Part shown: positions 15,549-57,952 of the stretch, one piece after another
Numbering within the stretch: the first letter of the stretch is position 1
How the letters are laid out: each line of letters starts with the position of its first letter
Assembly (NCBI GenBank): GCA_965216935.1
Contig: OZ244217.1
Location: 1,018,316 to 1,082,315 of the forward strand
Length of the DNA stretch: 64,000 nt
Source of the DNA: Acidobacteriota bacterium
GTDB taxonomy: Bacteria > Acidobacteriota > UBA890
Direction of reading: 5' to 3'
Notes under the pieces: generated by a model
Seen by the model: the letters and a program-made list of their open reading frames with translations, nothing else
What the model was told of the DNA's origin: nothing
The model's database searches: none
Translations under genes and position numbers: made by a program

Positions 15549-16765
15549 TCAATCGGCGTAGAGCTGCAGGGTGGTGCCGACGAAATCGGCCATCTCCAAC
15601 GTCGTCTCGAGATCGGGATGCCGCAACATGACGAATCCGTCGCCGACGATGCTCCGCCGCCAGTCCTTCGCCGGCTCGCCGACGCCGGTGAGCTCGACGG
15701 CGCAAACGTGGTGGCCGATGGTGGCGAGCACCCGGTCGAGACCCTCGATCCGACGCACGACCCCCTGACCGTGCGCGCGTTTGAAGATGCCGGCGGAGTT
15801 GTACTTGCGCTCGACGGGCTGCGTGAAACAGCCGTGGCAAACGGCTTCCGCCCAGCCGCGGAACAGGTCGATGTCCGAGGCGAAATTCATCAGGTCCACC
15901 GTCCGCGCGCCGGGCGATCGAGCGCCGATCTCGCAGAATACCGCCTCGCCGTCGGTCGTACGGAACCATTCCATGTGGGTGAACCCGGTCTGCACGCCGA
16001 GCGCGGCGTGTACCGCCCGGCCCATCTCACGCCCCGCGGCGACCGCATCGCCCTCGACGTCGCGGCGGCAGATGGTCTGCGGGCTGATCCACTGGCCGCT
16101 CTTGTTCACCAGGGCCCGCGGCCGATAGAAGGCGATGTTGTCGTAGAGGATCTCACCCTCCACGGTGACGGTATCGAAGGTGTAGTCATCGCCGTCGATG
16201 TACTCCTCGATGCTCACCTCGGCGATGTGCCCGAGCCGTGCGAGCGCGTCCTCGAGCTCGCCGGCGTCGTCGACGCGGTAGGTATCCTGCGAGCCGGCGC
16301 CGGCGATGGGCTTGAGGATGAGCGGATAGCCGATGTCCTCGGCCGCCTCGCGGCATTGGTCGGCCGTGTGCGCGCGGCCATGTCGTGGCGTGCGTATCCC
16401 GGCCTCGTCCAGGCGCACCTTCATGGCCTCCTTGTCGCGAAACGGTATGGTCTCGGTAACCGTCATCCCGGGCAGCCCGAGCTCCTCGCGCATGCGGGCG
16501 GCGGCGACCATCAGCGGTTCCCACAGGCACTCGACCCGGTCAATCGTCACGCGCGATGCGATCTGCTTGGCCGTGGCCACCATGCCGGCCTCGTCGGCGA
16601 AGGAGTCCGCCCTCACGTAGGCCGAGAGATGACGGCGGCCGTGCTCCGGAACCGAGGCTTCGGGTTGATCGCCGATCCCGATGACGCGGGCGCCCACCTC
16701 CGCCAGCCCGCGGGTGAAGTGCGGCATTTCGGCGGGAAAGCCGGGCGACAGCATCAAGACGTTCA
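15549..16765 (-). CDS. ATP-grasp domain ligase (paralog A of three)
   Basis: The ATP-grasp signatures are GYPLILKPIAGAGSQDTYRV, EEYIDGDDY and HMEWFRTTDGEAVFCEIGARSPGA. I prefer the start at the GTG at 16765 (VNVLMLSPGFP), which aligns with the N-termini of paralogs B and C. The ORF track's GTG at 16814 would add 16 aa. Confidence 0.75.
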
Positions 16766-16830
16766 CAGGCGCTCTCTTTCTCGTCGAGGGGCTCTCGACC
16801 GTGCCCACATCCACCAGCTCATACCCTCGC

Positions 16831-18081
16831 TCATCCGAGCTCCACCCGGATTGTTCGTATCAGCCTGTCCAGAGCCTCGGTGACCACCGTGGTTTCGGGA
16901 TGCCGGACGATGACGTACCCGTCGCCGTCGTAGGACGGCGACGGCGTTTGACCGAGTTTCGGCAGGCGGACCTCCATGGCGATCTCACCGGACTGGCGCT
17001 GCGCCTCCTCGAGGCCGCGGATGCTCCGCACACGGCCGCTGCCCTGGCCGCGGAGAAACGCCGCCCCTGCGGCGTATGGGCGGTCGGGAGGGTCGAACTC
17101 TCCGAACACGACGAGGCGGGCCCATGCGCCGTACATGTCGACGTCGTGGGCGTACGAGATCAGGGTGGAGAACTGAGCTCCGGGCGGGCGGGCGCCGACC
17201 TCCGAGATGGCGAAGGTGCCGTCCGGTCGGCGAAACCACTCCATGTGGCTCAGGCCGTCTTGCATGCCGAGCGCCCCGAGGGCGGCCTCGGCCAGCGGCC
17301 GGAAGGCAACCACGTCCGCGCGGTCCGTTTCGCGCGGAAGCACGACGCACCACTGGATCCAGGGGTTTTCCATCACCTCGAGCGGCCCCGGGTGGTAATC
17401 GGTGTGCGAGCTCCAGACGATCTTCCCCCCCAGCCAGACACTGTCGAAGGAATGCTCCTCCCCGCGGACGAATTCTTCCAGCATGATCGGCGAGCGGCCT
17501 GACGCCTCTTCCCCACCTGCGAGGGCGCCGGGCGGCAGCAGCTGCCGGAGCGCGATGCGCAGCTCGTCCGGGTTGCCGACGCGGAATGTCCCGCGCGACC
17601 CCGACCCGGCGATCGGTTTGACGACGAGAGGAAAGCCGGTGCCGGCGGCGAACGTCTCGGCTTCGGCGAGGCCGCCGACGCGCTGGTGGCGGGCGCACGG
17701 TAGGTCGTGGGCGGCGAGGATCTCCTTCATGCGGGCCTTGTCGCGAAAGTTCGCCGCCGTTTCCCCGTCCATGCCCTCGATGTCGAGCGCCGAGCGTACT
17801 TGCCCGAGTGGCACCTGGAGTTCCTCGAGCGCTCCGATGAGTCGGTCCACCGAGCCCATGCGGCCGCCGAGGACGCGCACGCCCGATTCGATGTGGCCGG
17901 GGTCCAGGGCGTCGGGCGTCTGTTCGATTGCTGCGAGTCGCGCGCGGATGCGCTCCGGAAGCCGGTCGACCGGATCCTGGGTGAGCAAGCCCACGCGTGC
18001 CCCCTCGAGCCGCGTGGCCGCGCCGACGAACCGCAGGGTCGTTTCGAGCAAGAAGGGCGCGACGAAAACGACGTTTGCCAC
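16831..18081 (-). CDS. ATP-grasp domain ligase (paralog B)
   Basis: It has a GTG start (M)ANVVFVAPF. The ATP-grasp signatures are GFPLVVKPIAGSGSRGTFRV, HMEWFRRPDGTFAISEVGARPPGA. It is homologous along its length to paralogs A and C. Confidence 0.75.
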   Translation of the reverse strand: MANVVFVAPFLLETTLRFVGAATRLEGARVGLLTQDPVDRLPERIRARLAAIEQTPDALDPGHIESGVRVLGGRMGSVDRLIGALEELQVPLGQVRSALDIEGMDGETAANFRDKARMKEILAAHDLPCARHQRVGGLAEAETFAAGTGFPLVVKPIAGSGSRGTFRVGNPDELRIALRQLLPPGALAGGEEASGRSPIMLEEFVRGEEHSFDSVWLGGKIVWSSHTDYHPGPLEVMENPWIQWCVVLPRETDRADVVAFRPLAEAALGALGMQDGLSHMEWFRRPDGTFAISEVGARPPGAQFSTLISYAHDVDMYGAWARLVVFGEFDPPDRPYAAGAAFLRGQGSGRVRSIRGLEEAQRQSGEIAMEVRLPKLGQTPSPSYDGDGYVIVRHPETTVVTEALDRLIRTIRVELG

Positions 18082-18220
18082 CGGGTGTGACCTCCTCTAC
18101 CGCAGCGCTCCGCAGACTCGAACCGGCGTCCCGAAAGCGCGTTTCAGCCTCGCTTCTGACCGCCGCCGGCCGGTTTTCAGCACGCGATCGCCAGGGCGTG
18201 GTGAATGGTACGCTTCGCGC

Positions 18221-19726
18221 ATGAATTCTACCCGGGTGCTCCATGTCGCTTCCGAGGTGGCGCCCTTCTCGAAGACCGGAGGGCTTGCCGACGTCGCGGC
18301 GGCGCTGCCCGCCGCCACCGCCCGGGCCGGCCACGAGCCGCGGATCTTCACCCCCCTGCACGGCGCCATCGACCGCTCGGCGCACGAGCTCGAGAACGTA
18401 GAGGGAGGTCCCTGGCGTCTCTTTCTGGGCGAGCGGAGCTTCGAGTATTCGCTCTGGCGCGGGAAGGTCCCCGGGACCGGCGTCGAGGTCGAGTTCGCCG
18501 ATTGCCCGGCGCTCTTCAACCGGCCCGGCATTTACGGCGGGGCCGACGACGAGCACCTACGGTTCCTGTTCCTGCAACGGGCCGCCCTCGATGCAACGGT
18601 GCGCAGGCAATGGGCGCCCGATATCGTCCACGTCCACGACTGGCACACCGGCCTGGTGCCGCTCTACCTGAAGACCCTGTACGCCGAGGAGCGCGTCCTC
18701 GCCTCGGCCCGCTCCGTCCTGACGATGCACAACCTCGGTTATCAGGGAATGTTCGGCGCAGACGTGGTGGGCGCCACCGGGCTGACACCCTTCGCTCGTT
18801 ACCTCCACCAGGACGACCTCGCCGCCGATCGTTTCAACTTCCTCAAGACCGGAATCATGTACGCGGATGTGCTGACCACCGTCAGTCCGACGTACGCCGA
18901 GGAGATCCAGACCAGCCGCCACGGCTTCGGTCTCGACGAGCTGCTGCGTCAGCGGGCCTCGAACCTGGTCGGAATTCTTAACGGCATCGACACCGCAACC
19001 TGGAACCCGCGCGCCGACAACCATCTCGACTACCGCTACTCCGTCAAGAGCTTGTGGCGGAAGGAGAAGAACAAGGAATCGCTGCTGGCGGAGTGCGGCC
19101 TCCCTTACGAGAAGGGTAGGCCGGTGATCGGGATGGTCGGGCGGTTGACCGCGCAAAAGGGAATCGACCTTCTCGACGGGCCGCTGGCGGACGTTCTGGC
19201 GCGGCACGACGTATCGCTTGTGGTGCTCGGCCAGGGGGAGGAGCGTTACGAGCGTTTCTTCCGCGGGCTGCAGGCGGCGATGCCCGCCCAGGTCTTCTTC
19301 TACTTTGGCTACCACGAGGTGTTCGCACATCGCGTCGAGGCGGGCGCCGACATGTTTCTGATGCCGTCGTTGTACGAGCCGTGTGGCCTCAACCAGATGT
19401 ACAGCCTTGCCTACGGCACGGTTCCCATCGTCCACAAGACCGGTGGGCTCGCCGATACGGTGACACTGTTCGACCCGGCGACCGGCGAGGGGAATGGCAT
19501 CGTCTTCGACCATCCCACCGCGGAGGGGGTTCGCTGGGCCCTGGAGACCGCGCTCACGCTGCATCTCGATCGGAAGCAGTGGAAGCGTATCGTCGCCAAC
19601 GCGATGGCGGCCGACAACTCCTGGGACCGTCGGGCCGCCGAGTATCACGACCTCTACGCACGCCTCGCGGGGCATCGCGAACGTGGATCGGCCCGGTCGG
19701 CAGGCTCTGTGGAGGCCTCCGGCTGA
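18221..19726 (+). CDS. glgA: Glycogen (starch) synthase, ADP-glucose type (GT5)
   Basis: It is colinear with E. coli GlgA. Matching signatures are LHVASEVAPFSKTGGLADV, HDWHTGLVPLYL, a TVSPTYA motif and GGLADTV. The start is taken at the ATG at 18221. The upstream 819 nt of the ORF 17402..19726 is antisense to ATP-grasp B and is rejected. Confidence 0.85.
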   Translation: MNSTRVLHVASEVAPFSKTGGLADVAAALPAATARAGHEPRIFTPLHGAIDRSAHELENVEGGPWRLFLGERSFEYSLWRGKVPGTGVEVEFADCPALFNRPGIYGGADDEHLRFLFLQRAALDATVRRQWAPDIVHVHDWHTGLVPLYLKTLYAEERVLASARSVLTMHNLGYQGMFGADVVGATGLTPFARYLHQDDLAADRFNFLKTGIMYADVLTTVSPTYAEEIQTSRHGFGLDELLRQRASNLVGILNGIDTATWNPRADNHLDYRYSVKSLWRKEKNKESLLAECGLPYEKGRPVIGMVGRLTAQKGIDLLDGPLADVLARHDVSLVVLGQGEERYERFFRGLQAAMPAQVFFYFGYHEVFAHRVEAGADMFLMPSLYEPCGLNQMYSLAYGTVPIVHKTGGLADTVTLFDPATGEGNGIVFDHPTAEGVRWALETALTLHLDRKQWKRIVANAMAADNSWDRRAAEYHDLYARLAGHRERGSARSAGSVEASG

Positions 19727-20949
19727 TGCACGTCGTGTTCATCGAGCCCGCGTTTCCGGTCAACCAGCAGGAGTTCGTCCGCGGGCTGCACGCGGTGGGT
19801 GCGCGGGTGACGGGGATCGGCGAGCGCCCCCTCGATGCGCTGCCGCAGTGGTTGCAGGAGAGCATGCTCCACTACGAGCAGGTGGGCTCGGTGGTCGACG
19901 ATCAGAGCATGCTCGAGACCGTTCGCCGCGTCGACGGGAGGCTTCCGGTCGATCGGCTGGAGGCGACGGTCGAAGCTCACATCATGACCGCGGCGCGTAT
20001 TCGCGAAGCCTGTGGGATCCCCGGAACCTCGGTACGTACGGCGCATCTTTGTCGCGACAAGCCGGCGATGAAAGAGGCCCTGCGGCAAGCCGGAATTCCC
20101 TGCGCCGCGTCGATCGGCACGGACTCGGCCGACGAAGCACGGCGGTTTGTCGCCGAGGTCGGCCTACCGGTGATTCTCAAGCCGCGTTCAGGCGCCGGCG
20201 CCAGCGGCACTTTCCTGGCGGCGTCGGACGCCGAGCTGGAGGACGCCATCGCCGCGAGTGGGCGCGGTCGTGGTGGGTCCGTCGCGGTGGAGGAGTTCAT
20301 CGAAGGGCACGAGGCTTTCTTCGACACGCTCACCATCGGGGGTCGGATCGTGCACCACTTCATCACCCACTACTTTCCGGGGGTGCTCGAGGCGATGCGG
20401 ACCCGCTGGATCTCACCGCAGTTCATCGTCACCAACCGGACCGATAGCGAGCCGTCGTACGACGAGGTCAAGGACCTCGGCCGGCGGGTCATCGAGGCCC
20501 TCGACATCGAGACGTCGGCGACGCACATGGAATGGTTTTTCGGGCCCAAGGGCCTGAAGTTCTCCGAGATCGGCTGCAGGCCTCCGGGCGTCGGTGCCTG
20601 GGATCTGTACTGCGCAGCCGACGAGATCGACCTGTATCGGGAGTGGGCGCTGGCGGTTTGCACCGGGAGCACGGCGGCGAATCCTTCTCGACGCTACTCT
20701 GCCGGGATCATCGCGCTGCGCCCGGATCGCGACGGCCGCATCTCGCACGTCGAGGGGCTCGACTTCGTCCGCGAGGCCTTCGGTGAGTGGATCATCGACT
20801 TCCATATTCCGCCCTCCGGAACGCTCACCCAGCCGGTGGAAGCCGGTTACATGGCCAACGCCTGGATTCGCATGAGACACCCCGATTTCGACGAGCTGAA
20901 GAGCATGCTCGACACGGTCGGCGAGCGGGTCCAGGTCCGTGCCGACTGA
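19726..20949 (+). CDS. ATP-grasp domain ligase (paralog C)
   Basis: The ATG at 19726 overlaps the glgA stop (ATGA). The N-terminus MHVVFIEPAFP matches the paralog N-termini. The ATP-grasp signatures are GLPVILKPRSGAGASGTFLA and HMEWFFGPKGLKFSEIGCRPPGV. Confidence 0.75.
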   Translation: MHVVFIEPAFPVNQQEFVRGLHAVGARVTGIGERPLDALPQWLQESMLHYEQVGSVVDDQSMLETVRRVDGRLPVDRLEATVEAHIMTAARIREACGIPGTSVRTAHLCRDKPAMKEALRQAGIPCAASIGTDSADEARRFVAEVGLPVILKPRSGAGASGTFLAASDAELEDAIAASGRGRGGSVAVEEFIEGHEAFFDTLTIGGRIVHHFITHYFPGVLEAMRTRWISPQFIVTNRTDSEPSYDEVKDLGRRVIEALDIETSATHMEWFFGPKGLKFSEIGCRPPGVGAWDLYCAADEIDLYREWALAVCTGSTAANPSRRYSAGIIALRPDRDGRISHVEGLDFVREAFGEWIIDFHIPPSGTLTQPVEAGYMANAWIRMRHPDFDELKSMLDTVGERVQVRAD

Positions 20950-22027
20950 GCTCGTGTCAGCTTCCGGTTCGTCCGCGTCGCCCGCATCGTCCGGGTCGGG
21001 TTCGTCCGCGTCGCTTGCTTCGTCCGCTTCGCCCGGTTCGTTCGCTTCGCCCGCATCCGAGGGCGGCGATCCGTCGGCTGTCGACTTGGCTCCCGAGAAC
21101 GGCCGGGCCGTCGTGCTCCTCGGGCCGCAGGGACGGCGGGAAACGCTCGCCGGCAAGCTCGACGAGCTCGGAGTGTCGGGAACCGTCGCCGTGGTCACCG
21201 CGGGGTGGCAGGAGCGGGAAGACGAGATCCTGGCGCTGCAGACCCACCTCGACAGGCCGATCGAGAACCTCCGCCTGCACGCGCGCGCCCGCGAGATCTT
21301 CACTCAGGACGAAGACCTGGGCGTGGCACACCGCCGGCGGCAGCGGACCCTCCGGCATCTGCGACGCCTGTACAACGTCCGCCTCTCCCATGCCATCGAC
21401 GCGCTTTCGGCCCTGGCCGGACGGCCGGAAGATTCTGATCTGGTCGAGGACGCGCGCGACGCCGCGATGGAGGCGGTGCGCCGGATCGACGACGATCATC
21501 TGGGTCGAATCGACCGAGTCCACCGGCGATGGGAAGAGGAGGGCCGGGTCGAGGCGAGCGCCGCGGTTGCCCGGCATCGCGAGGAGATCGCCGCGATCCT
21601 GTCGCGGTGCTCCGCCGTGGCCATCGCCGGAGGGCACGTCGTCGTCCTGCTCAACCGCTTGCGACTATTCGACGTCGCGTCGTTGGGGGCCGACCTCCCC
21701 CTGGTGGCGTGGTCCGCCGGTGCGATGGCGCTCACCGAGCGAGTCGTTGCCTACCACGACACGCCACCGCAGGGCTTCGGTAATCCCGAAGTGCTCGAGC
21801 GCGGCCTCGGTCTGGTGCGCGGCCTTGTTGCCCTGCCGCATGCGCGCCGCAGGCTGCTGCTCGACGACCGGGATCGCGTGGCGCGGTTCGCCCGGCGTTT
21901 CGCCCCGGCGCGGTGCGCCGCGATGGACGGAGGGTCGGCCCTGCGGTTCGCACCCGGATCGCCGGTTGTTGGCGAGGCTATCCGGGTGCTCGCGACGGAT
22001 GGCTCGCTCGGGAGCCTGGAGCCATGA
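20939..22027 (+). CDS. Peptidase S51-like serine peptidase (cyanophycinase / dipeptidase E family) with a Ser/Ala-rich low-complexity N-terminal region
   Basis: A GTG start at 20939 overlaps the end of ATP-grasp C. By manual comparison with cyanophycinase motifs, AIAGGHVVVLLNRLRL resembles the GG(D)..L.RL motif and LVAWSAGAMAL resembles GxSAGA around the Ser nucleophile. The first roughly 40 aa are SASGSSASPASSGSGSSASLASSASPGSFASPAS. The true start may lie downstream. Confidence 0.55.
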   Translation: MPTELVSASGSSASPASSGSGSSASLASSASPGSFASPASEGGDPSAVDLAPENGRAVVLLGPQGRRETLAGKLDELGVSGTVAVVTAGWQEREDEILALQTHLDRPIENLRLHARAREIFTQDEDLGVAHRRRQRTLRHLRRLYNVRLSHAIDALSALAGRPEDSDLVEDARDAAMEAVRRIDDDHLGRIDRVHRRWEEEGRVEASAAVARHREEIAAILSRCSAVAIAGGHVVVLLNRLRLFDVASLGADLPLVAWSAGAMALTERVVAYHDTPPQGFGNPEVLERGLGLVRGLVALPHARRRLLLDDRDRVARFARRFAPARCAAMDGGSALRFAPGSPVVGEAIRVLATDGSLGSLEP

Positions 22028-23184
22028 CGGACGCGACTCCCGCCCCCGCCCGGCGGGCCATTCGCAACCTCGAGCGAGCCGGCCCGCCGGCCGCCGCGGA
22101 CATCGACGCGTTCCTCGCCGGTCACGAGTTCCCGCTGGTCGAAGGCAACAGCGTTACGTTTGTTTTTCGCGGCGAGGTCGATGCGGTGGCGTTGCACCAC
22201 TGGATCTACGGGTTGCCGTCGTCGCAGGAGTTCCGCCGCATCGACGGTAGCGACCTGTGGTACCTGAGCCTCGAGCTGCCCCCCGGCTCCCGCGTCGAAT
22301 ACAAGCTCGAGGTCCGCACCGGTGACGACATTCGTCTGATCGAAGATCCGCTCAACCCGCGCCGGGCACGGGACCCCTTTGGCGCCAACTCGGTGTGCGC
22401 CACCGGCGGTTACGAGGATCCCGAATGGACCCGGGAAGACCCCGAAAGCAGGCCGGGTACACTCGAGCCCCGCCTCATTCGCAGCAATGCCTACGGCGGC
22501 GACGTCGCCGTGACGCTTTACCTGCCGGCGCGCTATCGGCCGACCGCGCGCTATCCGCTGCTGCTGGTGCACGACGGCAGCGACTACGTCAACTACGCCG
22601 GCCTCAAGACCGTCCTGGACAACGTCATTCATCGCCACGAGGTCGCTCCGCTGATTGCCGTGCTGATCGATTCGCCCACGCGCTTGCACGAGTTCGCCAA
22701 CCACGAGCCCCACGCGGTCTTTCTGGCCGAAGAGCTGGTGCCGCAGCTGCAGAAGGAATTGCCGCTGCGCGAGGGGCCCTTGTGGCGCTGCCTGATGGGG
22801 GCGAGCTTCGGGGCCGTGGCGGCGTTTTCCACCGCCTGGAGATATCCCGACGCGTTTGGCAGGCTGTTGCTGCAATCCGGGTCATTCGCGTTCTCCGACA
22901 TCGGCGGCCACGCCCGCGGCCCCGTTTTCGATCCGGTCGCGGATTTCGTCAACGCGTATCGGGACGACCCGGTTCGCGTGGCGGAGAAAGTGTTCATGAG
23001 CTGTGGCATGTACGAGTCGCTCATCTACGAGAACCGCTCGCTGGTACCCGTCTTGCGGGACACCGGAATGGACGTCCGCTATGTCGAGACGCGGGACGGG
23101 CACAACTGGGAGAACTGGCGCGGACGGCTCCGCGAGGCGCTCTCGTGGCTTTTCCCCGGGCCGCTGTGGATGTTCTATGAGTAG
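22024..23184 (+). CDS. Esterase family alpha/beta hydrolase (PF00756-like, enterochelin-esterase-like) with an N-terminal Ig/CBM-like domain
   Basis: The ATG at 22024 overlaps the upstream stop (ATGA). The N-terminal beta domain is VTFVFRGEVDAVALHHWIYGL...YKLEV. The hydrolase core is LLLVHDGSDYVNYAGLKTVLDNVIHRHEVAPLIAVLID...GASFGAVAAFSTAWRYPDAFGRLLLQSGSF. Confidence 0.65.
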   Translation: MTDATPAPARRAIRNLERAGPPAAADIDAFLAGHEFPLVEGNSVTFVFRGEVDAVALHHWIYGLPSSQEFRRIDGSDLWYLSLELPPGSRVEYKLEVRTGDDIRLIEDPLNPRRARDPFGANSVCATGGYEDPEWTREDPESRPGTLEPRLIRSNAYGGDVAVTLYLPARYRPTARYPLLLVHDGSDYVNYAGLKTVLDNVIHRHEVAPLIAVLIDSPTRLHEFANHEPHAVFLAEELVPQLQKELPLREGPLWRCLMGASFGAVAAFSTAWRYPDAFGRLLLQSGSFAFSDIGGHARGPVFDPVADFVNAYRDDPVRVAEKVFMSCGMYESLIYENRSLVPVLRDTGMDVRYVETRDGHNWENWRGRLREALSWLFPGPLWMFYE

Positions 23185-23280
23185 ACGGGTGGGGGGGCAG
23201 CGGCGCTGGCAGAGACGGCGACCCGGGCATGGCCCGCGACACGGGCAGGACCCGCGACGCACCGCTGGGAGTGGCGGCTG

Positions 23281-24543
23281 ATGGCGACCATCACCCGCCG
23301 CATCGGGCTTTCACTCGGCGCCGACATCTGCTGGCCGATCTGCTACGAGGAGATCCTCCGTCGGCTCGATCTGTCGATCCGGCACGACGGCGACACGCTG
23401 CGGTTCGAAACCGAACGGGTGACGATCGAGCCGTTCGACCTGCGGCAGTCGATCCGCTACGACCTGATCATCGATCGGCTGACGCACTGGTACAGTCCGA
23501 GCCGCGAGTGGATCAAGAAGTCGATCCTGCTGAACGACGTCTACGTGTACAACAACCCGTGGACCGTCCAGTCGATGGAAAAGCTGACGTCGTATTGCGC
23601 CATGATCCGCCTGGGCATGCCCATCCCGACGACCTGGATGGTACCGCCGAAGGAATACGCAACGCTCCCCGACCTGCGCCCGACCCTCGAGCAGTACGCC
23701 CGGTACTTCGACTTCGACGAGCTCGGCGAGAAGGTCGGCTACCCGATGTACATGAAACCGTACGACGGCGGTGGCTGGGTCGGCGTCAGTCGCATCGACG
23801 ATGCCAGCGGGCTGCGCGCCGCCTACGAGCAGAGCGGGTCTCACGTCATGCAGTTGCAGCGAGCGGTGCATCCGTCGGATCTGTTCGTCCGGGTCATCGG
23901 CCTCGGGCCGCAGGCTCGCATCGTTCGCTACGATCCCTCCCAGCCGCTGCACGATCGCTACACCATGGCGCGTGACTTCGTCAGCGACGAGGAAGCATCG
24001 TGGCTCATCGACACGACGATGACGATCAACGCCTTCTTCGACTGGGACTTCAACTCCTGCGAAGTCCTGCGGGACGAAGCCGGCGACCTCTTTCCGATCG
24101 ACTTCGCCAATCCGTGTCCCGACTCGCAGGTCACGTCGTTGCACTATCACTTTCCCTGGCTGATCAAGGCGAACCTGCGCTGGTCGCTGTTCAACGCCGC
24201 GGTGGCGAGAAAGAAGCCACCGAGCCTGAGCTGGGCACCCTTCTTTGAAATCGCTGCGCTCGAGATCCCCTATCGCGAGAAGCTGCGACGATACGCGCAC
24301 ATCGCCCGCGAGCGGTTCTCGAGCGATCGGTTCGAGGAGTTTTGCGATCGCCACCTGGCCCATCTCGATGAGGTCGCATGGGAGTTTTTCGGATCGCCCG
24401 CCACGCGTGACGCCGTGTACCAGAAGGTGAAGGCGCTCTACCCGGCCGACGAGGTTGACCGCTTCACCGAGCTGTTCATCGAGCGAATCGAGGTCTGGCG
24501 GGGCGCCGCCGAGAAGGAAGAGCCGGGGGCGGGCGTCCGGTGA
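23281..24543 (+). CDS. Hypothetical protein, possibly ATP-grasp fold (glutathionylspermidine synthase-like)
   Basis: A clear ORF with an ATG at 23281. The segment VGYPMYMKPYDGGGWVGVSRIDD recalls the ATP-grasp core of YgiC/GspS-family proteins (KPIFSREGANVSI). The assignment rests on manual motif comparison only. Confidence 0.4.
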   Translation: MATITRRIGLSLGADICWPICYEEILRRLDLSIRHDGDTLRFETERVTIEPFDLRQSIRYDLIIDRLTHWYSPSREWIKKSILLNDVYVYNNPWTVQSMEKLTSYCAMIRLGMPIPTTWMVPPKEYATLPDLRPTLEQYARYFDFDELGEKVGYPMYMKPYDGGGWVGVSRIDDASGLRAAYEQSGSHVMQLQRAVHPSDLFVRVIGLGPQARIVRYDPSQPLHDRYTMARDFVSDEEASWLIDTTMTINAFFDWDFNSCEVLRDEAGDLFPIDFANPCPDSQVTSLHYHFPWLIKANLRWSLFNAAVARKKPPSLSWAPFFEIAALEIPYREKLRRYAHIARERFSSDRFEEFCDRHLAHLDEVAWEFFGSPATRDAVYQKVKALYPADEVDRFTELFIERIEVWRGAAEKEEPGAGVR

Positions 24544-25268
24544 AGTCGAGCGAGACCTGGCATTCCGGGCGCCTGGAGCGTTCGGTGACGCTGGTTCGCT
24601 GGGGGCATTTCGGTGTGCCGGTGCTCATCTTCGCCACCGCCGGCGGCGACGCCGAGGAAATCGAACGCTTCCATCTCGTCGGGGCGCTCTCCGAGCTCAT
24701 CGAGGCCGGTCGCATCAAGGTCTACTCGTGCGACAGCGTCGCCGGCCGTGCGCTGATCACGCAGGAAGGCTCGGCCCAGCACCGGGGTTGGTTGCAGCAC
24801 CAGTTCCAGGAGTTCATCTACCATGAGGTCGTGCCGGCCATACGCACCGATTGCGCCGCCGAGGACATCGAGGTGATCGCGGCAGGCGCCTCGATCGGCG
24901 CGTTCCAGGCCCTCGCGGCGGTTTGCCGATACCCCGACACGTTCGCCAAGGCGCTCTGCGTCAGCGGCACGTACGACCTTTCTCGCTTTATCAAGGACGG
25001 CGACCCGGGTCGGTTCTTTCACGAATCGTCCCCGCTTCACTACCTGACGGACCTCGACGAGGATCGGCTGGAGGCGATCCGTCGCCGCTTCGTGCTTTTC
25101 GCCAGCGGCGAAGGTCGGGCCGAGGACATCGGCGAGTCGTGGCGGGCGGCGCACGTCCTGGGAAGCGCCGGCATTCCGAACCGGGTCGACAACTGGGGCC
25201 CGGAATGGGATCACGACTGGCCGACCTGGCGGGTGATGCTGCCCCAGTACCTTTCGGAGTGGACATGA
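24540..25268 (+). CDS. Esterase family alpha/beta hydrolase (PF00756-like)
   Basis: A GTG start overlaps the upstream stop (GTGA). The Ser motif is in AAGASIGAFQAL (GxSxG-like GASIG). It has the typical esterase-family length and segments (VYSCDSVAGRA, HYLTDLDEDRLE). Confidence 0.65.
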   Translation: MKSSETWHSGRLERSVTLVRWGHFGVPVLIFATAGGDAEEIERFHLVGALSELIEAGRIKVYSCDSVAGRALITQEGSAQHRGWLQHQFQEFIYHEVVPAIRTDCAAEDIEVIAAGASIGAFQALAAVCRYPDTFAKALCVSGTYDLSRFIKDGDPGRFFHESSPLHYLTDLDEDRLEAIRRRFVLFASGEGRAEDIGESWRAAHVLGSAGIPNRVDNWGPEWDHDWPTWRVMLPQYLSEWT

Positions 25269-25371
25269 GCGACGGCAGCGTTGAACGAGCCACCACCTCG
25301 AGAGCAGCCCGCAGCTCGATCTCGATGGTCCGCTGACGATCGCCGTCCGAGTCCGTGTCGACGAGCTCGGT

Positions 25372-25809
25372 TTGCACCAGCACCTGTTCGCTTGCGATGA
25401 CAAGTGGGCCCTGTGGATCACGCCCGACGATCGCTACCGCCTCGGCGACACCCGCGGTGGGGGTTGGTCCAGCGAGCCGGGCCGGGTACGGCGGGGCGAG
25501 TGGGCCGCCGTCGTGGCGGTGTTGCGGGGCACCCGTGGCGACCCGCTGACACCGCAGGCCGTATCGCTATACGTCGACGGCGACGGCAGCGCGGCGTCGA
25601 TGCATCAACGCACCGGCGAGGCGGTCGAGTTCGGCACCTGGAACCCGGGCGAGCTTTACCCGCGCGATGCCTGCTACATCGGCTTCGAGTCTCACCAGGG
25701 CATGGAGTCGCACCGCACGATGGCATTCATCGGAGCCATCGACGAAGCGATGGTGTTCGCCCGCGCCTGGAGCGAGGCCGAGGTGGTGGCGTTCTCGCCG
25801 CGTCGCTGA
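25372..25809 (+). CDS. Hypothetical protein (possible concanavalin/LamG-like fragment)
   Basis: A TTG-start ORF. An in-frame stop lies at 25282 and there is no ATG/GTG upstream. The C-terminus MAFIGAIDEAMVFARAWSEAEVVA resembles the LamG-like ...IDEVRIYNRALSAEEI ending. Confidence 0.35.
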   Translation: MHQHLFACDDKWALWITPDDRYRLGDTRGGGWSSEPGRVRRGEWAAVVAVLRGTRGDPLTPQAVSLYVDGDGSAASMHQRTGEAVEFGTWNPGELYPRDACYIGFESHQGMESHRTMAFIGAIDEAMVFARAWSEAEVVAFSPRR

Positions 25810-25902
25810 CCGGCGACCCGAAGAAAGGGTTGTTTGCGGCGGTGATGTCCTAGTAGCTTGGGACACGAAGCTTCGGAATCACCGCGACGCAAGGGGTCGG
25901 CG

Positions 25903-26910
25903 ATGACCGATGTTCCATCTGTAGCGCAGAGGATCCTGGACCAGCTCGAGCGGGCGATCTTCGGCAAGCGCGAGGCGCTCGAGCTCGTGCTCACCTGCCT
26001 TCTCACCGAGGGGCACCTGCTCATCGAGGACGTCCCCGGGACCGGCAAGACGCAGCTGGCGAAGGCCCTGGCGCGCATTTTCGGCGGCTCGTTTCGTCGA
26101 TTGCAGTGCACACCCGACCTTCTCCCGGCCGACATCACCGGATCGAACGTCTTCAACCAGAACAGCAACGAGTTCGAGTTCCATCCGGGGCCGGCGTTCA
26201 CCAACATTCTTCTGGCCGACGAGCTCAACCGCGCGACGCCGAGAGCCCAGGCAGCGTTGCTGGAATGTATGGCGGAACGCCAGATCAGTGTCGAGGGGCA
26301 GACGTACGAGCTGCAGCGCCCGTTCTTCGTCATCGCGACGCAGAACCCGGTCGAGCACGAGGGAACCTTCGACTTGCCGGAGGCGCAGCTCGACCGCTTC
26401 CTCATGCGGTTGGCCATCGGCTACCCGGACGAGGAGGCCGAGGAGACGATGCTCATCGAGCTCGATCGTCGCGACCTTCTGGAGGAGGTCGAGGAGGTTT
26501 CGACTCTCTCGGAGCTGATCGACCTGCAGGAAAGCGCCCGCTCGGTCCACGTCCACCCGGTCGTGCGCCAGTACATCATTCGCACGGTCGCGGCGACGCG
26601 CGAAAGCAAGGACTTCGCCCTCGGCGCCGGCCCGCGAGCCAGCATCGCCCTGTTTCGTTCGTGCCAGGCTCTCGCCGCGATCAGCGGCCGCAGCTTCGTG
26701 TTGCCGGACGACGCCAAGCGGCTCCTCCCTGTCGTGCTGCCGCACCGGCTCATTCTCTCGACCGAGGGACGCCTGAAGCGCCGCGGCGTGGTCGACGCCT
26801 TGCACGAGACGATCGATACGGTGCCGGCGCCGGTCGTCGGACCCGAAGGCATCGTGCAGCCGCCCCAGGACGCCGACGGGGACGACATGGCACGCCGGCG
26901 GAGTGGCTAG
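25903..26910 (+). CDS. MoxR-family AAA+ ATPase
   Basis: The N-terminus is MTDVPSVAQRILDQLERAIFGKREALELVLTCLLTEGHLLIEDVPGTGKTQLAKALA (Walker A GTGKT). The MoxR hallmark second region is present. The ATG is at 25903. Confidence 0.85.
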   Translation: MTDVPSVAQRILDQLERAIFGKREALELVLTCLLTEGHLLIEDVPGTGKTQLAKALARIFGGSFRRLQCTPDLLPADITGSNVFNQNSNEFEFHPGPAFTNILLADELNRATPRAQAALLECMAERQISVEGQTYELQRPFFVIATQNPVEHEGTFDLPEAQLDRFLMRLAIGYPDEEAEETMLIELDRRDLLEEVEEVSTLSELIDLQESARSVHVHPVVRQYIIRTVAATRESKDFALGAGPRASIALFRSCQALAAISGRSFVLPDDAKRLLPVVLPHRLILSTEGRLKRRGVVDALHETIDTVPAPVVGPEGIVQPPQDADGDDMARRRSG

Positions 26911-28297
26911 CCCGGGGGAGTCCCCGTCGAGCGACGCTCCGCGGCCTGAAGCCGCATCGCGTTCGTTCGCCGGCCTGGCGCGGTTGTTGCGCCGGCCCGT
27001 AGGAGACTTCTGGACCCGCTATACCCAGGTTGCCGTGTGGGGGGTCGTCGGCGTGCTGACAACACTGTTGCTCGCCGTCTTCTCTTCCGGCCTCTTCCTG
27101 TATGCCGTGTTGGTGGTCGGCATTGCCCTGGCCGCCTCGCTCTTGTTCGCCAGCGTCGCGGTCAGTCACCTGAGCGTGCAGCGAGAGGTGAGCGACGCCA
27201 CGGTGCCTGCCGGGCGGAGGGTAGACGTCACCTTGACGATCGAGAACCGGAAGCCGTTGCCGGTTCCCTGGCTCTACTGCGAAGACAAGGTCGAGGACGG
27301 CCTCGAGGTCGACGGCGGCACCGCGGTGTTGCAAACGCTGCCGGCCGAAGAGCGGCTGACTCTCAGCTACAAGGTCAGCGCGAATCGCCGAGGTCTGTAC
27401 CGCATCGGGCCGTCGATCGCCGAAGCGTCGGACCCGATGGGTTTGGTCCGCCGCTTCAAGACCGATCGACACCCGGAGTTCCTGACCGTCACCCCGAAAG
27501 TGCTCGGCCTCGGGTCCGGCTGGCCGCTGGGGCACAACGCCCTGCACCGCACGCCCCGCCGGCGGAGCTTGTTCGAAGATCCGTCGCGCTTCATCGGCAT
27601 CCGGGACTACCAGCCGTCGGACAGCATTCGACGGATCCACTGGCGGGCGACGGCGCGACTGGGCTCGTTGCAGGTGAAGACGTTCGAGCCGGCGGTGCTG
27701 CAGGGGGCGCTATTGATCGTCGACGGGGCGCCGAGCCCGGACGAGGAGCTGTTCGAGCTCACCGTCACGACGGCCGCGTCGGTCGCCGACTACGTTCTCT
27801 TTCAGGGACAGAAGGTCGGCTTGCTGTCGAACGGAGGCGACGCGGCCGAGCGATACCCACGCGACTGGTCGGGCGAGACGTTCCGCCGCATCGAGGACGT
27901 CGTCGAACGAACCGAGGCGCGCGAGGCGCTCAGCGGCTTTCGGCCGCTGGAGCTGCGTCCCGGGCGGGGCGACGGGCAGCGGTCGATGGTCCTGGCGGCG
28001 CTGGGTCGCCTGGTGCCGGCCTCCGGCGTGACCCTGGCGCAGTTGCTCGAAGTAGAGATGCCGCGCATACCCCGAAGCCTGGTTGCCATCGTCGTTACCC
28101 GAGCAATCGACGACGAGCTGGTCTTTGCCCTGGACGGTCTGCGTCGTGCCGGCGTCGAGTCGTCGGTGATGTGGATTCGGCCCGGAGAGCCGTCGCCGGC
28201 CTCGGAGGCCGTCTTCCCCGTCTTGCCGCCCGGCGTCACGTTCCACGCGATTTCCGACGAGGCGCACCTCGAGGACCTGGGAGCGCAGACGCTATGA
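26903..28297 (+). CDS. DUF58 domain protein (MoxR partner)
   Basis: The start overlaps the moxR end. The DUF58 signature is FIGIRDYQPSDSIRRIHWRATARLGSLQVKTFE. There are two N-terminal TM helices. Confidence 0.8.
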   Translation: MASPGESPSSDAPRPEAASRSFAGLARLLRRPVGDFWTRYTQVAVWGVVGVLTTLLLAVFSSGLFLYAVLVVGIALAASLLFASVAVSHLSVQREVSDATVPAGRRVDVTLTIENRKPLPVPWLYCEDKVEDGLEVDGGTAVLQTLPAEERLTLSYKVSANRRGLYRIGPSIAEASDPMGLVRRFKTDRHPEFLTVTPKVLGLGSGWPLGHNALHRTPRRRSLFEDPSRFIGIRDYQPSDSIRRIHWRATARLGSLQVKTFEPAVLQGALLIVDGAPSPDEELFELTVTTAASVADYVLFQGQKVGLLSNGGDAAERYPRDWSGETFRRIEDVVERTEAREALSGFRPLELRPGRGDGQRSMVLAALGRLVPASGVTLAQLLEVEMPRIPRSLVAIVVTRAIDDELVFALDGLRRAGVESSVMWIRPGEPSPASEAVFPVLPPGVTFHAISDEAHLEDLGAQTL

Positions 28298-34626: not shown

Positions 34627-35067
34627 CTACACCAGGTCGTGTTCTTCGAGGAGGCGTCGAGCGCGTGCCAGCCCGACGATCTCCGCCAGCCGCCGGGCTT
34701 CGAGCGTGGCCGCCTCGTGCCCGGCTTGGGTAATCCGATAGTACCGTCGGCGCTCATCGTCCTCTTCCGTTGCCGGGCGTTTCGACGATACGTCGATCAG
34801 TCCGTCGTTACGCAGGCGCTTGATCGAACGGTACAGGGTCCCGGGGGGCAGGCGCATCTCTCCGCGCGTGGCCGCCTCGACGAACTGCATGATGCCGTAG
34901 CCGTGGCGTTCGCCGTCGGCGAGCGCCATCAGGATGTGGAACATCGCCGGCGTCAGCTCGATGCGCGCCCTCGCGTCCTCGCGACGACCGCTCGTGTCGC
35001 CGCTGCCCGGGTGATCGCTTTTCGGCCGTTTGTCGTCGCTGGGCGTCATGGCCACCTCCTCCGTCAT
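34627..35067 (-). CDS. PadR family transcriptional regulator
   Basis: The winged-HTH PadR signature is MFHILMALADGERHGYGIMQFVE...GTLYRSIKRLRNDGLI. Its start overlaps the stop of the upstream permease by 4 nt. Confidence 0.8.
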   Translation of the reverse strand: MTEEVAMTPSDDKRPKSDHPGSGDTSGRREDARARIELTPAMFHILMALADGERHGYGIMQFVEAATRGEMRLPPGTLYRSIKRLRNDGLIDVSSKRPATEEDDERRRYYRITQAGHEAATLEARRLAEIVGLARARRLLEEHDLV

Positions 35068-51048: not shown

Positions 51049-53526
51049 TCAGTCTTGTTTCAACGCCACCATCGGGTCCACCGAGGCGGCGTGCCGGGCC
51101 GGAATCGCCGCCGCAACGAACGCGGCGACGACCACCACGGCAACGGCGACGGCGAACGTCACCGGGTCGCGGGTGCCGACGCCGTAGACGATCGAGCCCA
51201 GCGCGCGGAGGCTGCCGAGCGCCGCCAGCACCCCGACGACGATGCCGAGCGCCGTGACCGTTCCGGCGCCGCGCATGACCAGCCGGTAGAGGTCCTTCCG
51301 CTCCGCTCCCAGTGCCTTGCGGACGCCGAGCTCGCGGGTGTGCGTGGCCACGGCAAAGGACAGCACGCCATACAGGCCGACGGTCGCCAGGGTCAGTGCC
51401 GTGACGCCGAAGAAGTTCAGCAACCACATGAGCACACGCTGCTTTGCCAGTGCTTGTGCCAGCCGGTCCTCCATGGAGCGGACGTTGTACACCGGGATCT
51501 TCGGATCGAGCTCGTGGACGATCCGCGAGACCGCCGGCGCAAGCGCGGCGGGGTCGGTCCGAGAGGCGGCGGATCCGTTGCTTGCTTCGGCGTCGATCCG
51601 GAGCACACCGAAGAGCGCCCGCGACGCCGACGCGGCATGCGGCATGAAAACCGCCGGGCGCGTATCGGCATCGAGCCCGTAGTGACGAACCGTTTCCACC
51701 ACGCCGACGATGGTGACGCGCTCGGTGAAGTCGTTGCCGATCCACTTCCCCACGGCATCTTCGACCGGCCAGAAGCGCTCGGCGAAGTCACGATTGACGA
51801 TCGCCACTTGCGGCTCGCCGTCGTCGCCGCTGTCGAACGTGCGCCCGGCGACGACGTCGACCTGCATGGCTTCGAAGTAGCCCGGCGTTGCCACCATGAC
51901 GTCCGCGACGATACGGGCGTCCGGGTTGTCTTCGTTGAATCCCTCGACGACGTAGTCGGTCCAGGCGAGGCCCCGGGTCAGCGGGAGCATCGACGTTCCG
52001 CCCGCATGGGTGACCCCCGGCAGGTTGCCCAGACGGGTGAACACCTGTTCGTAGAAGCGAACTCGTGCGTCCGCGTCCCGGTAGCGGGGCCCCACGAGCG
52101 GGACGCGGAACGACAACGTCCCTTGCGGGTTGAATCCGGGGTCGACCGCCTGCAGCTCACGGAAAGTGCGCACCAGGAGCCCGGCGCCGATGACCAGGAG
52201 CAGCGACAGGGCGACCTGCATGACGACCAGCAGGCGCGAGCCGTCGCGCCGCCAGGCCGAGCGGGCCCCTACCGCGGTGGCGCCCTGGCGCAGGACGTCG
52301 CCCGGCTGGACCCGAGAGGTTCGAATCGCCGGACCCAAGCCGAACAGCAGGCTCGAAAGCAGGCACAGGGCGGCGGCGAAGATCAACACCGGTGCATCGA
52401 CGGCGACGTCGCGCAGACGAGGCAGCTCATCCGGCGCCGCGATGTGGAGCGCTCGCACACCGAGCACCGCCACCGCCAGTCCGCCCGCACCGCCCAGGAG
52501 CGAGAGAAGCAGGCTCTCGATCAGTGCACGCGACATCATGCGACCGCGGTGGGCGCCGAGGGCGGCGCGGATGCCGAGCTCGCGCTGGCGTGTGGCGGCG
52601 CGGGTGAGCATCAGGTTGGCGACGTTGGCGCAGGCGATGGCCAGCAGCGCCGTGGTTGCCGCGAGGAGAACGACGAGATACAAGCGCGCTCCGCCGACGA
52701 TCTGATCGAAGAGCGGCACAACGGCGATGAAAAACTCGCTGCCCACCGTGAGCCCGGCGCCCAGAGCCCCGGGATCGTCGGAAAAGACCTGTGCTACCTC
52801 CAGAAGCTCCGTGTCGAGCCGGTCTCGGGTAGCGTTGGCCCGCAGCTTGCCGATGACGTTGAAGTTTTCCGAGCCACGCGACGAGCGTTGCGGATCCGAC
52901 AGGGGGAACGAGAGCAGCAGGTCGAATTCGGGGACGGTCACCAGCGGCACCATCATATCGGCGTCCAGGACCATCGAGGGCAACACACCGACGACCTCCA
53001 GCCGGTTTCCGTCGATCATCAGCGTGCGGCCGATGAGGGCCGGATCGGCGGAGAACTGCTGGCGGTAGAGGCGCTCTCCCAAGATCACCTTGCGCGGCGC
53101 GTCCGGGACGTCGTCGGTCGCTTCGAACCTCCTCCCGGCGATCGGCATGATGCCCATGACGTCGAAGAAGGACGACGAGACGCGGAGGGCGCCCAGTCGA
53201 GTGGGCTCGAGATCGTCTCCGGTGAGGGTGACCTCCTGTCCGAAGCTCACCGCGACGTGCTCGAGGCTCGTCGCTCCCTCGCGGATGTCGAAGTACTGGG
53301 CCGCCGAGAACCAATCCTCGGTGACGCCGACACCCGGCGCCCGTTGCCACAACATGACCAGGCGGTCCTGGTCGGGGAACGGCAAGGGACGCAACAAGAC
53401 GCCATTGACGACGCTGTAGATCGCGGTCGTGGCGCCGACGGCGAGCGAAAGGGTGATGACCACGACCGCCGAGAACCCGGGCGCCCGAACCAAGGCGCGG
53501 GCAGCGTACTTGAGCTCCTGCATCAT
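51049..53526 (-). CDS. ABC transporter permease with duplicated FtsX/MacB-like domains ('ADOP'-type), no prefix domain
   Basis: The N-terminus is MMQELKYAARALVRAPGFSAVVVITLSLAVGATTAIYSVVNGVLLRP. There are two FtsX 4-TM modules. It is a paralog of 35064..37925 and 55246..57942. Confidence 0.8.
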   Translation of the reverse strand: MMQELKYAARALVRAPGFSAVVVITLSLAVGATTAIYSVVNGVLLRPLPFPDQDRLVMLWQRAPGVGVTEDWFSAAQYFDIREGATSLEHVAVSFGQEVTLTGDDLEPTRLGALRVSSSFFDVMGIMPIAGRRFEATDDVPDAPRKVILGERLYRQQFSADPALIGRTLMIDGNRLEVVGVLPSMVLDADMMVPLVTVPEFDLLLSFPLSDPQRSSRGSENFNVIGKLRANATRDRLDTELLEVAQVFSDDPGALGAGLTVGSEFFIAVVPLFDQIVGGARLYLVVLLAATTALLAIACANVANLMLTRAATRQRELGIRAALGAHRGRMMSRALIESLLLSLLGGAGGLAVAVLGVRALHIAAPDELPRLRDVAVDAPVLIFAAALCLLSSLLFGLGPAIRTSRVQPGDVLRQGATAVGARSAWRRDGSRLLVVMQVALSLLLVIGAGLLVRTFRELQAVDPGFNPQGTLSFRVPLVGPRYRDADARVRFYEQVFTRLGNLPGVTHAGGTSMLPLTRGLAWTDYVVEGFNEDNPDARIVADVMVATPGYFEAMQVDVVAGRTFDSGDDGEPQVAIVNRDFAERFWPVEDAVGKWIGNDFTERVTIVGVVETVRHYGLDADTRPAVFMPHAASASRALFGVLRIDAEASNGSAASRTDPAALAPAVSRIVHELDPKIPVYNVRSMEDRLAQALAKQRVLMWLLNFFGVTALTLATVGLYGVLSFAVATHTRELGVRKALGAERKDLYRLVMRGAGTVTALGIVVGVLAALGSLRALGSIVYGVGTRDPVTFAVAVAVVVVAAFVAAAIPARHAASVDPMVALKQD

Positions 53527-57942: not shown

Positions 57943-57952
57943 CGGATCGGCC

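Follow-up and report, generated by a model that had tools for sequence, protein, structure and literature searches.

What purpose is served by a gene cluster that sets a glycogen synthase among four ATP-grasp ligases and three serine hydrolases? This question is raised by a 64,000-nt stretch from an Acidobacteriota genome (contig OZ244217.1 of assembly GCA_965216935.1, positions 1,018,316 to 1,082,315 of the forward strand; hereafter the window, to which coordinates refer unless a related locus is named). An initial annotation had noted three mutually homologous ATP-grasp proteins arranged around glgA, together with a further ATP-grasp protein, an S51-type peptidase and two esterases, and had suggested the synthesis and turnover of an amino-acid polymer, oligopeptide or peptide conjugate. 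The eight-gene cluster at 15549-25268 proved to be a real, conserved unit in at least seven major lineages. Our tentative reading, to which we give slightly less than an even chance, is that it encodes a self-contained cytoplasmic cassette that would make and degrade a peptide-type compound or polyamide and would be tied to glycogen synthesis in expression and inheritance.

Eight genes in two divergent arms

The eight genes were defined by combining an open reading frame (ORF) listing with third-position GC and translation, in a window whose GC content is about 68% throughout. On the minus strand lie LalA (15549..16766; 405 aa from a GTG at 16766, with an ATG at 16754 as alternative start), an ATP-grasp ligase of predicted L-amino-acid-ligase (Lal) type, and LalB (16831..18081; 416 aa), its second paralogue. 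The plus strand begins with GlgA (18221..19726; 501 aa), a GT5 ADP-glucose-type glycogen/starch synthase, and LalC (19726..20949; 407 aa), the third and best-conserved ATP-grasp paralogue. These are followed by an S51-like serine hydrolase (20939..22027; 362 aa in its long form, with other starts at 20954 and 21113), Est1 (22024..23184; 386 aa), a Fes-like PF00756 alpha/beta-hydrolase with an N-terminal beta-sandwich, the fourth ATP-grasp enzyme (23281..24543; 420 aa), and Est2 (24540..25268; 242 aa), a short PF00756-type alpha/beta-hydrolase. The end of the first ATP-grasp gene had been placed at 16765, which is one base out of frame; the correct end is 16766. For six of the genes the exact product is a called but nameless gene on one 5.87-Mb public contig, the sixth, S51, only in a 304-aa form; the exact LalB product is a called public gene.

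The cluster probably consists of two divergent operons. According to the junction sequences, the glgA stop codon and the LalC ATG have one base in common (TGATG), S51 and Est1 overlap by ATGA, and the fourth ATP-grasp gene and Est2 overlap by GTGA; three plus-strand junctions thus overlap by 1-4 nt, and 96 nt separate Est1 from the fourth ATP-grasp gene. Of the chain of ATGA/GTGA overlaps described initially, the S51/Est1 and fourth ATP-grasp/Est2 links and the 96-nt gap hold, but the glgA/LalC link reads TGATG and the LalC/S51 one is ambiguous in its start. Between the two arms, LalB and glgA are separated by 139 nt (18082..18220), presumed, purely from the geometry, to be the promoter region of both. 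No sigma-70 consensus site or Rfam match was found in this intergenic region, and no riboswitch or other RNA element at 13-28 kb of the window; a scan for promoter-like sites gave none and terminator-like sites occurred at chance level, the scan being uninformative at 68% GC. On inspection of the sequences, no signal-like N-terminal segment is visible in the eight products, and all of them appear to be cytoplasmic.

Conservation of the cluster across genomes

A scan of 185,579 species-representative genomes with an alignment of the fourth ATP-grasp enzyme gave at least 563 matches encoding a relative. Eighty related loci were returned, onto which all window proteins were mapped by tblastn, and 33 of these loci are fully covered, with at least 8 kb on each side. 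Est1 was found beside the fourth ATP-grasp gene in 73 (32, numbers in brackets refer to the fully covered loci) of the 80 loci and Est2 directly downstream of it in 59 (24). S51 is present in 56 (26), LalC in 45 (23), LalA in 34 (23), GlgA in 33 (18) and LalB, mostly paired with LalA, in 28 (19) loci. LalA orthologues are 46-71% identical, and those of LalC 60-71% identical across phyla. The best matches are Eiseniibacteriota-type sequences, with 74-88% identity.

The carrier lineages comprise Eiseniibacteriota, Myxococcota, Binatia, Planctomycetota, Acidobacteriota, Steroidobacteraceae and one Gemmatimonadota locus with a GlgA-LalC pair (L008). The gene order of the window recurs in Binatia, Eiseniibacteriota and unclassified metagenome-assembled genomes, and other orders are found elsewhere. 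In Myxococcota, GlgA-LalC heads the plus-strand genes and LalA/LalB follow several kb downstream; Planctomycetota show LalC(-) GlgA(-) LalB(+) LalA(+); Steroidobacteraceae carry a LalA(-) GlgA(+) LalC(+) block downstream of the core; and in Acidobacteriota GlgA(-) LalB(+) LalA(+) lies downstream of the core, directly after Est2 in two of three loci. The gene neighbourhood singled out by the initial annotation, glgA included, is conserved across phyla despite these rearrangements.

Reduced forms of the cluster also occur. Five loci of Acidimicrobiales and other Actinomycetota (L023, L044, L047, L052 and L077) hold LalA, LalB, LalC, Est1, the fourth ATP-grasp gene and Est2, and neither S51 nor GlgA was found within 10 kb in these variants. 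Most Gemmatimonadota loci have no GlgA beside the Lal genes, L008 being the exception. The minimal form, in some Gammaproteobacteria and Acidobacteriota, consists of S51, Est1, the fourth ATP-grasp gene and sometimes Est2 within 10 kb. Because of the locus counts and these minimal variants, we identify the fourth ATP-grasp enzyme and Est1, usually with S51 and Est2, as the ancient core of the system. The Lal triad does not belong to this core but forms, together with GlgA, an accessory block whose genes travel jointly. A dispersed version is present in a cultivated myxobacterium, Sandaracinus amylolyticus (L087, CP070225.1, 6933690-6954919), with LalA, LalB, a 450-aa gene, GlgA, inserted genes, LalC, further inserted genes, a 324-aa gene, Est1 and a 432-aa ATP-grasp gene.

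Some related loci carry genes that the window does not. A GCS2-type carboxylate-amine ligase fused to two CBS domains (about 650 aa) stands directly after Est2 in 26-29 related loci (29 of the 80 and 15 of the 33 fully covered loci by count; for example L032, 12018..13976, as well as L010, L012, L014, L019-L021, L023, L025 and L027). It is the fifth ligase of the extended system and is absent from the 64-kb window. Downstream of it, seven loci (L010, L014, L019, L027, L031, L061 and L062, for example L062 14051..15028) encode a protein of the AstE/AspA type (succinylglutamate desuccinylase/aspartoacylase), which hints at N-acyl-Asp or N-acyl-Glu chemistry.

The glycogen synthase and its neighbours

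GlgA scores 527.8 bits against TIGR02095 (cut-off 328.45) and 248.9 bits against Glyco_transf_5, matches both Arabidopsis SS4 and E. coli GlgA with E values of about 1e-89, and contains the motifs KTGGL, HDWHT, NGID..WNP, RL..QKG and EPCGL..YG..P..TGGL. It stays under every species-level equivalog cut-off. By these scores and motifs GlgA is a canonical GT5 ADP-glucose-type glycogen synthase, as had been annotated. Like the enzyme of glgBXCAP operons it belongs to the GT5 GlgA family with all motifs, and glgB lies near the cluster in a few related loci (5-6; it is absent from the window). Unlike in those operons, however, the cluster glgA stands apart from glgC, glgP and glgX and is coupled translationally to an amino-acid ligase instead. 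Elsewhere in the window no glgC, other glycogen genes or cyanophycin genes were found.

Is glgA then part of the system at all? It could be a housekeeping glycogen synthase gene that stands beside an unrelated peptide-metabolism module and travels along with it. This would fit the canonical state of every GlgA motif, the lack of glgC or any other glycogen gene in the window, and the lack of a nearby GlgA in 15 of the 33 fully covered loci, among them every Acidimicrobiales locus and most of those from Gemmatimonadota. The positional data speak against a bystander, which we regard as unlikely: GlgA abuts a Lal gene (at most 400 nt away) in 28 of 32 loci, across both orientations and at least five gene orders. 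In 26 loci LalC follows GlgA directly on the same strand, with a spacing that is typically 2-100 nt and in the window shrinks to the one-base overlap. Moreover, a non-orthologous GlgA takes the same position in locus L004, where a divergent GlgA (29% identity) is found between two Lal genes.

Two further observations concern glycogen-type genes at related loci. Beside the divergent, Lal-flanked glgA of L004, a gene at 17814..18143 encodes a 109-aa AMPK1_CBM (glycogen-binding module) protein. In two Eiseniibacteriota loci (L005 and L007, 1..3045), further genes were noted; in L005 an ATP-grasp_IQCH/PGM1_C-type ligase and a glgB-like CBM48 alpha-amylase-family gene lie upstream of LalB and LalA.

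Three predicted L-amino-acid ligases

The three ATP-grasp ORFs are mutually homologous, as initially observed, with 32-36% identity over about 400 aa and E values of 2e-56 to 3e-80 in pairwise BLASTP; LalA and LalC are the closest pair (36%, E 3e-80) and LalB is 32% identical to either. LalA matches Pfam ATP-grasp_4, ATP-grasp and ATPgrasp_N over cut-off (ATPgrasp_N with 28.5 bits), LalB matches ATP-grasp_4 (35.8 bits) and LAL_C2 weakly below threshold, and LalC matches ATP-grasp and CPSase_L_D2 over cut-off and LAL_C2 below it. The nearest solved structure to LalC is RizA (4wd3; E 3e-18), which is the L-amino-acid ligase for rhizocticin; BL00235 and BacD come next (E about 1e-7). The best NCBIfam models, PRK02186 and PRK07206, give 47-74 bits against cut-offs of 302-625, which places the paralogues outside Ddl, CPSase and other characterised equivalogs, in line with the initial annotation. 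Assignments to Ddl, CPSase, PurT or PurK were rejected, with scores far under the curated cut-offs, and so were the JGI names "GAR transformylase" and "carbamoylphosphate synthase large subunit" given to Lal homologues, which are generic ATP-grasp name transfers. The LalC homologues listed carry generic or automated names throughout, without a characterised function.

All three paralogues contain the segment E(I/V)G(A/C)R(P/S)PG, reported initially as EIG(A/C)R(P/S)PG and regarded as distinctive. Its presence in all three holds, but because it aligns with EIAMRIGG of RizA it is a general trait of the Lal family and not a peculiarity of the cluster. Like RizA, the paralogues have this E-I-x-x-R-x-x-G segment in place of E-x-N, and they share with RizA, BacD/YwfE and BL00235 the domain plan of ATPgrasp_N, ATP-grasp and LAL_C2. 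Identity to RizA is low, and the alignment is limited to residues 68-291. We classify LalA, LalB and LalC, by motif, domain plan and sequence match to RizA, as predicted ATP-grasp enzymes of the L-amino-acid-ligase (RizA/BacD) type. Enzymes of this type form amides between free amino acids.

With RizA and BacD as the nearest characterised relatives, and with Est1 resembling Fes, the locus might be a dipeptide or oligopeptide antibiotic cluster of the rhizocticin/bacilysin kind with self-resistance hydrolases, or a siderophore-recycling locus around the Fes-like esterase. We consider either highly improbable. With at least 563 matches in many phyla and 60-75% identity, the set does not resemble strain-specific biosynthetic clusters. 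Neither the window cluster nor, recurrently, the related loci encode an exporter, a TonB receptor, an ABC importer or a tailoring enzyme, and all products are apparently cytoplasmic. In contrast to dipeptide-antibiotic ligases, which belong to strain-specific clusters, the Lal paralogues are conserved across phyla beside glycogen synthase.

A fourth ATP-grasp enzyme of a RimK/synapsin-like family

The fourth ATP-grasp protein has no Pfam match at all and no NCBIfam family either. Its fold is closest to synapsin, RimK and ITPK1, and the ATP-grasp Lys, E261 and a Mg site of the form D274-x-x-N277 are among the positions that never vary. Because D274-x-x-N277 is invariant here, it is this protein that holds the spacing variant of E-x-N that had been ascribed to the three paralogues. 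Of its 13 Trp residues nine are invariant, and residues ~290-412 form a conserved helical domain (about 130 residues) at the C-terminus. At least 5785 homologues exist, of which the 120 best are 65-75% identical and the named ones are called "hypothetical"; identity across phyla is 62-75%. We conclude that the fourth enzyme is a member of the ATP-grasp superfamily in a new RimK/synapsin-like family. The label "GspS-like", under which it had been introduced, has to be given up: there is neither a match to GSP_synth (PF03738) nor a GspS-like pre-ATP-grasp fold.

It does not belong to the RimK family itself, as neither TIGR00768 nor a Pfam RimK model matches. Identity to RimK/LysX/ArgX and to the synapsin C domain is only 9-16%; the Mg motif is D-x-x-N and not the E-x-N of RimK; and the additional helical domain of about 130 residues distinguishes it from RimK and synapsin. 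Of the two ligase likenesses considered for the cluster, to RizA-type Lals and to RimK, only the Lal one has sequence support.

RimK, LysX and ArgX modify proteins, and the fourth enzyme could analogously add amino acids to a carboxyl group of a protein, with the hydrolases removing the tail. The conserved C-terminal domain could serve to recognise the target protein. We find such reversible protein tailing quite unlikely, however. Unlike with RimK/LysX/ArgX, no target protein is encoded nearby, and an all-against-all comparison of flanking ORFs gave no conserved small carrier or target gene but only GCS2-CBS, AstE/AspA, glgB and lineage-specific genes. The intergenic gaps of the window are too short for a carrier gene, and tailing would leave three RizA-like free-amino-acid ligases and a glycogen synthase without a role.

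The S51-like hydrolase

The 5' end of the S51 gene allows three starts: a GTG at 20939, overlapping LalC by 11 nt, a GTG at 20954, 4 nt past the LalC stop, and the GTG at 21113 of the public gene call (304 aa). In homologues VxLLGPQ is preceded by a conserved "DP" motif, before which just two in-frame starts exist, the GTGs at 20939 and 20954. This motif favours a long form, and the S51 gene is likely to be closely coupled to LalC. The segment in question (20939..21112, plus strand) would encode an S/A-rich low-complexity stretch (SASGSSASPASSGSGSSASLASSASPGSFASPAS), and its third-position GC in the S51 frame is 0.70, below that of the remainder of the gene.

Against Pfam Peptidase_S51 (PF03575) the window protein scores 22.4 bits, with a cut-off of 23.9, and many close homologues carry a precomputed PF03575 match. 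No significant PDB match was obtained by sequence or family profile. An alignment of 43 homologues contains strongly conserved motifs in which most positions are invariant or nearly so, and the structure model built from it has a pLDDT of 89.8. In this model the protein has the S51 (class I glutamine-amidotransferase-like) fold, with cyanophycinase and PepE as structural relatives; because the Pfam score lies just under threshold, the assignment rests on the model. The predicted nucleophile S201 in WSAGAM and H243 in LPHARRRL are each conserved in at least 90% of homologues; they line up with the CSAGS and IPHA segments of peptidase E from D. radiodurans, with a weak sequence E-value and support from the fold. 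An extra helical hairpin, about 110 residues long, separates the first strand-helix unit from the AGGH segment. The Arg-rich LPHARRRL segment that includes the catalytic His is invariant. D272 is nearly invariant and the position following it varies, being Gly in the window protein; this is the position where we take the canonical Glu of PepE and CphB to fall. The S51 assignment of the initial annotation stands on the Ser/His pair and the fold.

The PF00756 hydrolases Est1 and Est2

Both esterase assignments were borne out, with 75.6 bits for Est1 and 39.3 bits for Est2 against PF00756 (cut-off 22) and GxSxG and the His kept in both. The Est1 family profile matches enterochelin esterase 2b20 (E 1e-22), and the alignment pairs GASFG and GHNWENW with the Ser and His of Fes; in Est2 the sequence of the nucleophile elbow is GASIG. 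Because Est1 reaches 99.7 bits against the Fes equivalog, whose cut-off is 222, it is not filed as Fes. Est1 shares the two-domain plan of Fes and of CBM48-bearing CE1 feruloyl esterases, including the aligned GxSxG Ser and C-terminal His, and like Fes is apparently cytoplasmic; in contrast to Fes it has no siderophore genes nearby but ligases and a glycogen synthase as partners. "Esterase", as applied to Est1 and Est2, is to be read as a family name that implies no ester substrate. PF00756 enzymes normally cleave esters, and some alpha/beta-hydrolases related to polyester depolymerases cleave the amide bonds of polyaspartate.

The N-terminal domain of Est1 brings up another possible substrate. 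Enterochelin_N matches it in all 16 of 16 members, and there are weak matches to CBM_20 (9 of 16 members) and CBM_48 (3 of 16), which cover about 30 residues and stay under threshold; the matches to the Est1 profile include CE1 esterases bearing CBM48. A peptide- or aminoacyl-decorated alpha-glucan could be envisaged, in which the fourth ATP-grasp enzyme esterifies the carboxylate of an amino acid or another compound onto a glucan hydroxyl, the Lals lengthen it to short peptides, Est1 and Est2 cut the ester, S51 trims the peptide and GlgA supplies the scaffold. Such a glucan would account for the esterases being the steadiest partners of the fourth enzyme (73 and 59 of the 80 loci) and for GlgA staying beside the Lal genes, and it would suit the Est1 beta-sandwich with its CBM matches, the AMPK1_CBM protein beside glgA in L004, glgB in 5-6 loci and a Trp-rich fourth enzyme, as Trp is frequent in sugar-binding sites. 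On the other hand, Enterochelin_N fits the Est1 domain better than the short, sub-threshold CBM matches, Lal-type enzymes form amides between free amino acids, many genomes carry the core module without GlgA within 10 kb, and the Trp richness is merely suggestive. Moreover, we know of no aminoacylated glycogen. We judge a decorated glucan improbable, and give the same low standing to a new intracellular reserve of peptides or amino acids attached to or co-deposited with glycogen, in which the fourth enzyme would form the link, possibly an ester to a glucan hydroxyl, the Lal paralogues would lengthen the peptide, and the Fes-like hydrolases and S51 would set it free again.

A proposed function

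The cassette proposed at the outset, one that makes and breaks down a peptide-type compound or polyamide, would work as follows. The four ATP-grasp enzymes are apparently intact, with catalytic motifs kept, and the three serine hydrolases apparently retain nucleophile and His; all seven are predicted to be active. LalA, LalB and LalC would activate the carboxylate of an amino acid as acyl-phosphate and add the next residue; they are taken to join free amino acids because their relatives do. Their product would be a short peptide or a polyamide's repeating unit, and the fourth ATP-grasp enzyme would carry out a committing or elongating ligation, comparable to the carboxyl-terminal tailing done by RimK. 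The three hydrolases S51, Est1 and Est2 would break the product down so that its amino acids can be reused. As GlgA would be co-translated with LalC, the compound would be made while glycogen is deposited, and could either store carbon and nitrogen together or be a metabolite associated with glycogen. The product type (polymer, oligopeptide or conjugate) is wholly what we infer.

Two considerations give this scheme its shape. For reserve compounds, glycogen, cyanophycin and PHB among them, synthesis and breakdown are encoded together; because the cluster has the same arrangement, a compound that is made and reused is proposed. PepE and CphB cleave Asp-containing peptides. The building blocks would most likely be acidic residues (Asp or Glu), since the LPHARRRL segment of S51 is Arg-rich, its PepE/CphB relatives are Asp-directed, and related loci encode GCS2-CBS and AstE/AspA-type proteins.

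Cyanophycin metabolism by CphA and CphB works somewhat alike, and the initial annotation had already noted the lack of a canonical CphA. This is confirmed: the cyanophycin synthetase models TIGR02068/PRK14016 give 24-42 bits with the cluster ligases, against cut-offs of 850-877 and over the ATP-grasp part only, and no Mur-ligase domain occurs in the eight products. As CphA is absent, the cluster does not qualify as a cyanophycin system. Where cyanophycin metabolism has a single multidomain synthetase, the cluster has four separate ATP-grasp proteins; its S51 protein differs from cyanophycinase CphB by the helical insertion of about 110 residues and is only ~16% identical to it; and nothing in cyanophycin metabolism corresponds to the two alpha/beta-hydrolases or to the embedded glycogen synthase. 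The hydrolases are within S51 and PF00756 and outside any characterised subfamily. We regard the cluster as a variant of ligase/peptidase cassettes for non-ribosomal peptide-type compounds, with a real but minor possibility that it is a categorically new system.

Several points weigh against the proposed cassette. Its main weakness is that PF00756 enzymes, which normally cut esters, would be superfluous in a pure polyamide model. The minimal form of S51, Est1, ATP-grasp and Est2, with one ligase and three hydrolases, resembles salvage or repair as much as storage. In Acidimicrobiales neither S51 nor GlgA is nearby, and therefore neither gene is indispensable. The 61-75% identity across phyla suggests horizontal transfer of the whole block, which may inflate the apparent independence of the GlgA-Lal adjacencies. 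In S51, D272 is near-invariant, but the position that would match the canonical Glu of the triad varies. Finally, no product, substrate or phenotype is on record, and the families have no characterised member.

Literature searches found no published account of this combination of ATP-grasp, glycogen synthase, esterase, S51 and L-amino-acid ligase genes, nor a described function for the cluster, and all homologues listed carry generic names only. The initial observation was essentially right save for one family label, one coordinate and one uncertain overlap, and its functional interpretation came through the computational tests run, the function itself still being what we infer. An anti-phage defence role was also considered and rejected, as PADLOC gave no defence-system match for any of the eight proteins.

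Flanking genes and other features of the window

Upstream of the cluster lie genes for a choice-of-anchor B protein, an amine oxidase and DsbD, and downstream MoxR/DUF58, efflux and MacB/FtsX genes; because these are unrelated to the cluster, its boundaries are sharp. The initial annotation had extended the cluster to 25809 and so taken in an ORF for a LamG/concanavalin-like protein (25265..25809, plus strand; Laminin_G_3 30.6 bits) that has no proper start; the cluster ends at 25268. The LamG-like domain extends upstream of the listed TTG at 25372 (...LDLDGPLTIAVRVRVDELG) as far as a stop codon, and the ATG at 25265, which forms an ATGA overlap with the stop codon of Est2, is in a frame that differs from that of the domain. 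A frameshift near 25290-25330, from pseudogene formation or sequencing error, is likely. Right after the cluster, 25858..28297 (plus strand) encodes a MoxR-type AAA+ ATPase (AAA_3, 206 bits) and then a DUF58 protein, a typical pair that is not linked to the cluster in other genomes. The LamG-like ORF and MoxR/DUF58 were rejected as cluster members because no counterpart of either occurs in the 80 related loci (absent from 80 of 80).

Farther downstream, three large MacB_PCD/FtsX permease genes lie on the minus strand (34627..37925, 51049..53526 and 55246..58462), and a PadR-family regulator precedes two MacB_PCD/FtsX genes (35064..37925 and 55246..57942) in a repeated PadR-FtsX arrangement. 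A further alpha/beta-hydrolase (53526..54509, plus strand) with weak Peptidase_S9/PF00756 matches lies 28 kb from the cluster and has no evident link to it.

Significance

The cluster represents a widespread gene set without a described function, with at least 563 matches in the species-representative scan and thousands of metagenomic homologues, and at its centre is a very strongly conserved ATP-grasp family outside Pfam and NCBIfam models. Through it, amino-acid ligation and glycogen synthase are joined both physically and in evolution, an unexpected and robust link that we did not find in the literature searched. Sandaracinus amylolyticus may offer a genetic model, and the cluster could be a source of new ligases and depolymerases for biopolymer work. 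If a reserve polymer or decorated glucan is indeed made, the view of carbon and nitrogen storage in Myxococcota, Gemmatimonadota, Acidobacteriota, Planctomycetota and related groups would have to be revised; and a glycogen-linked peptide reserve, if true, would give bacteria a third means of storing nitrogen together with carbon, one that differs from cyanophycin and occurs widely among phyla of soil and sediment.

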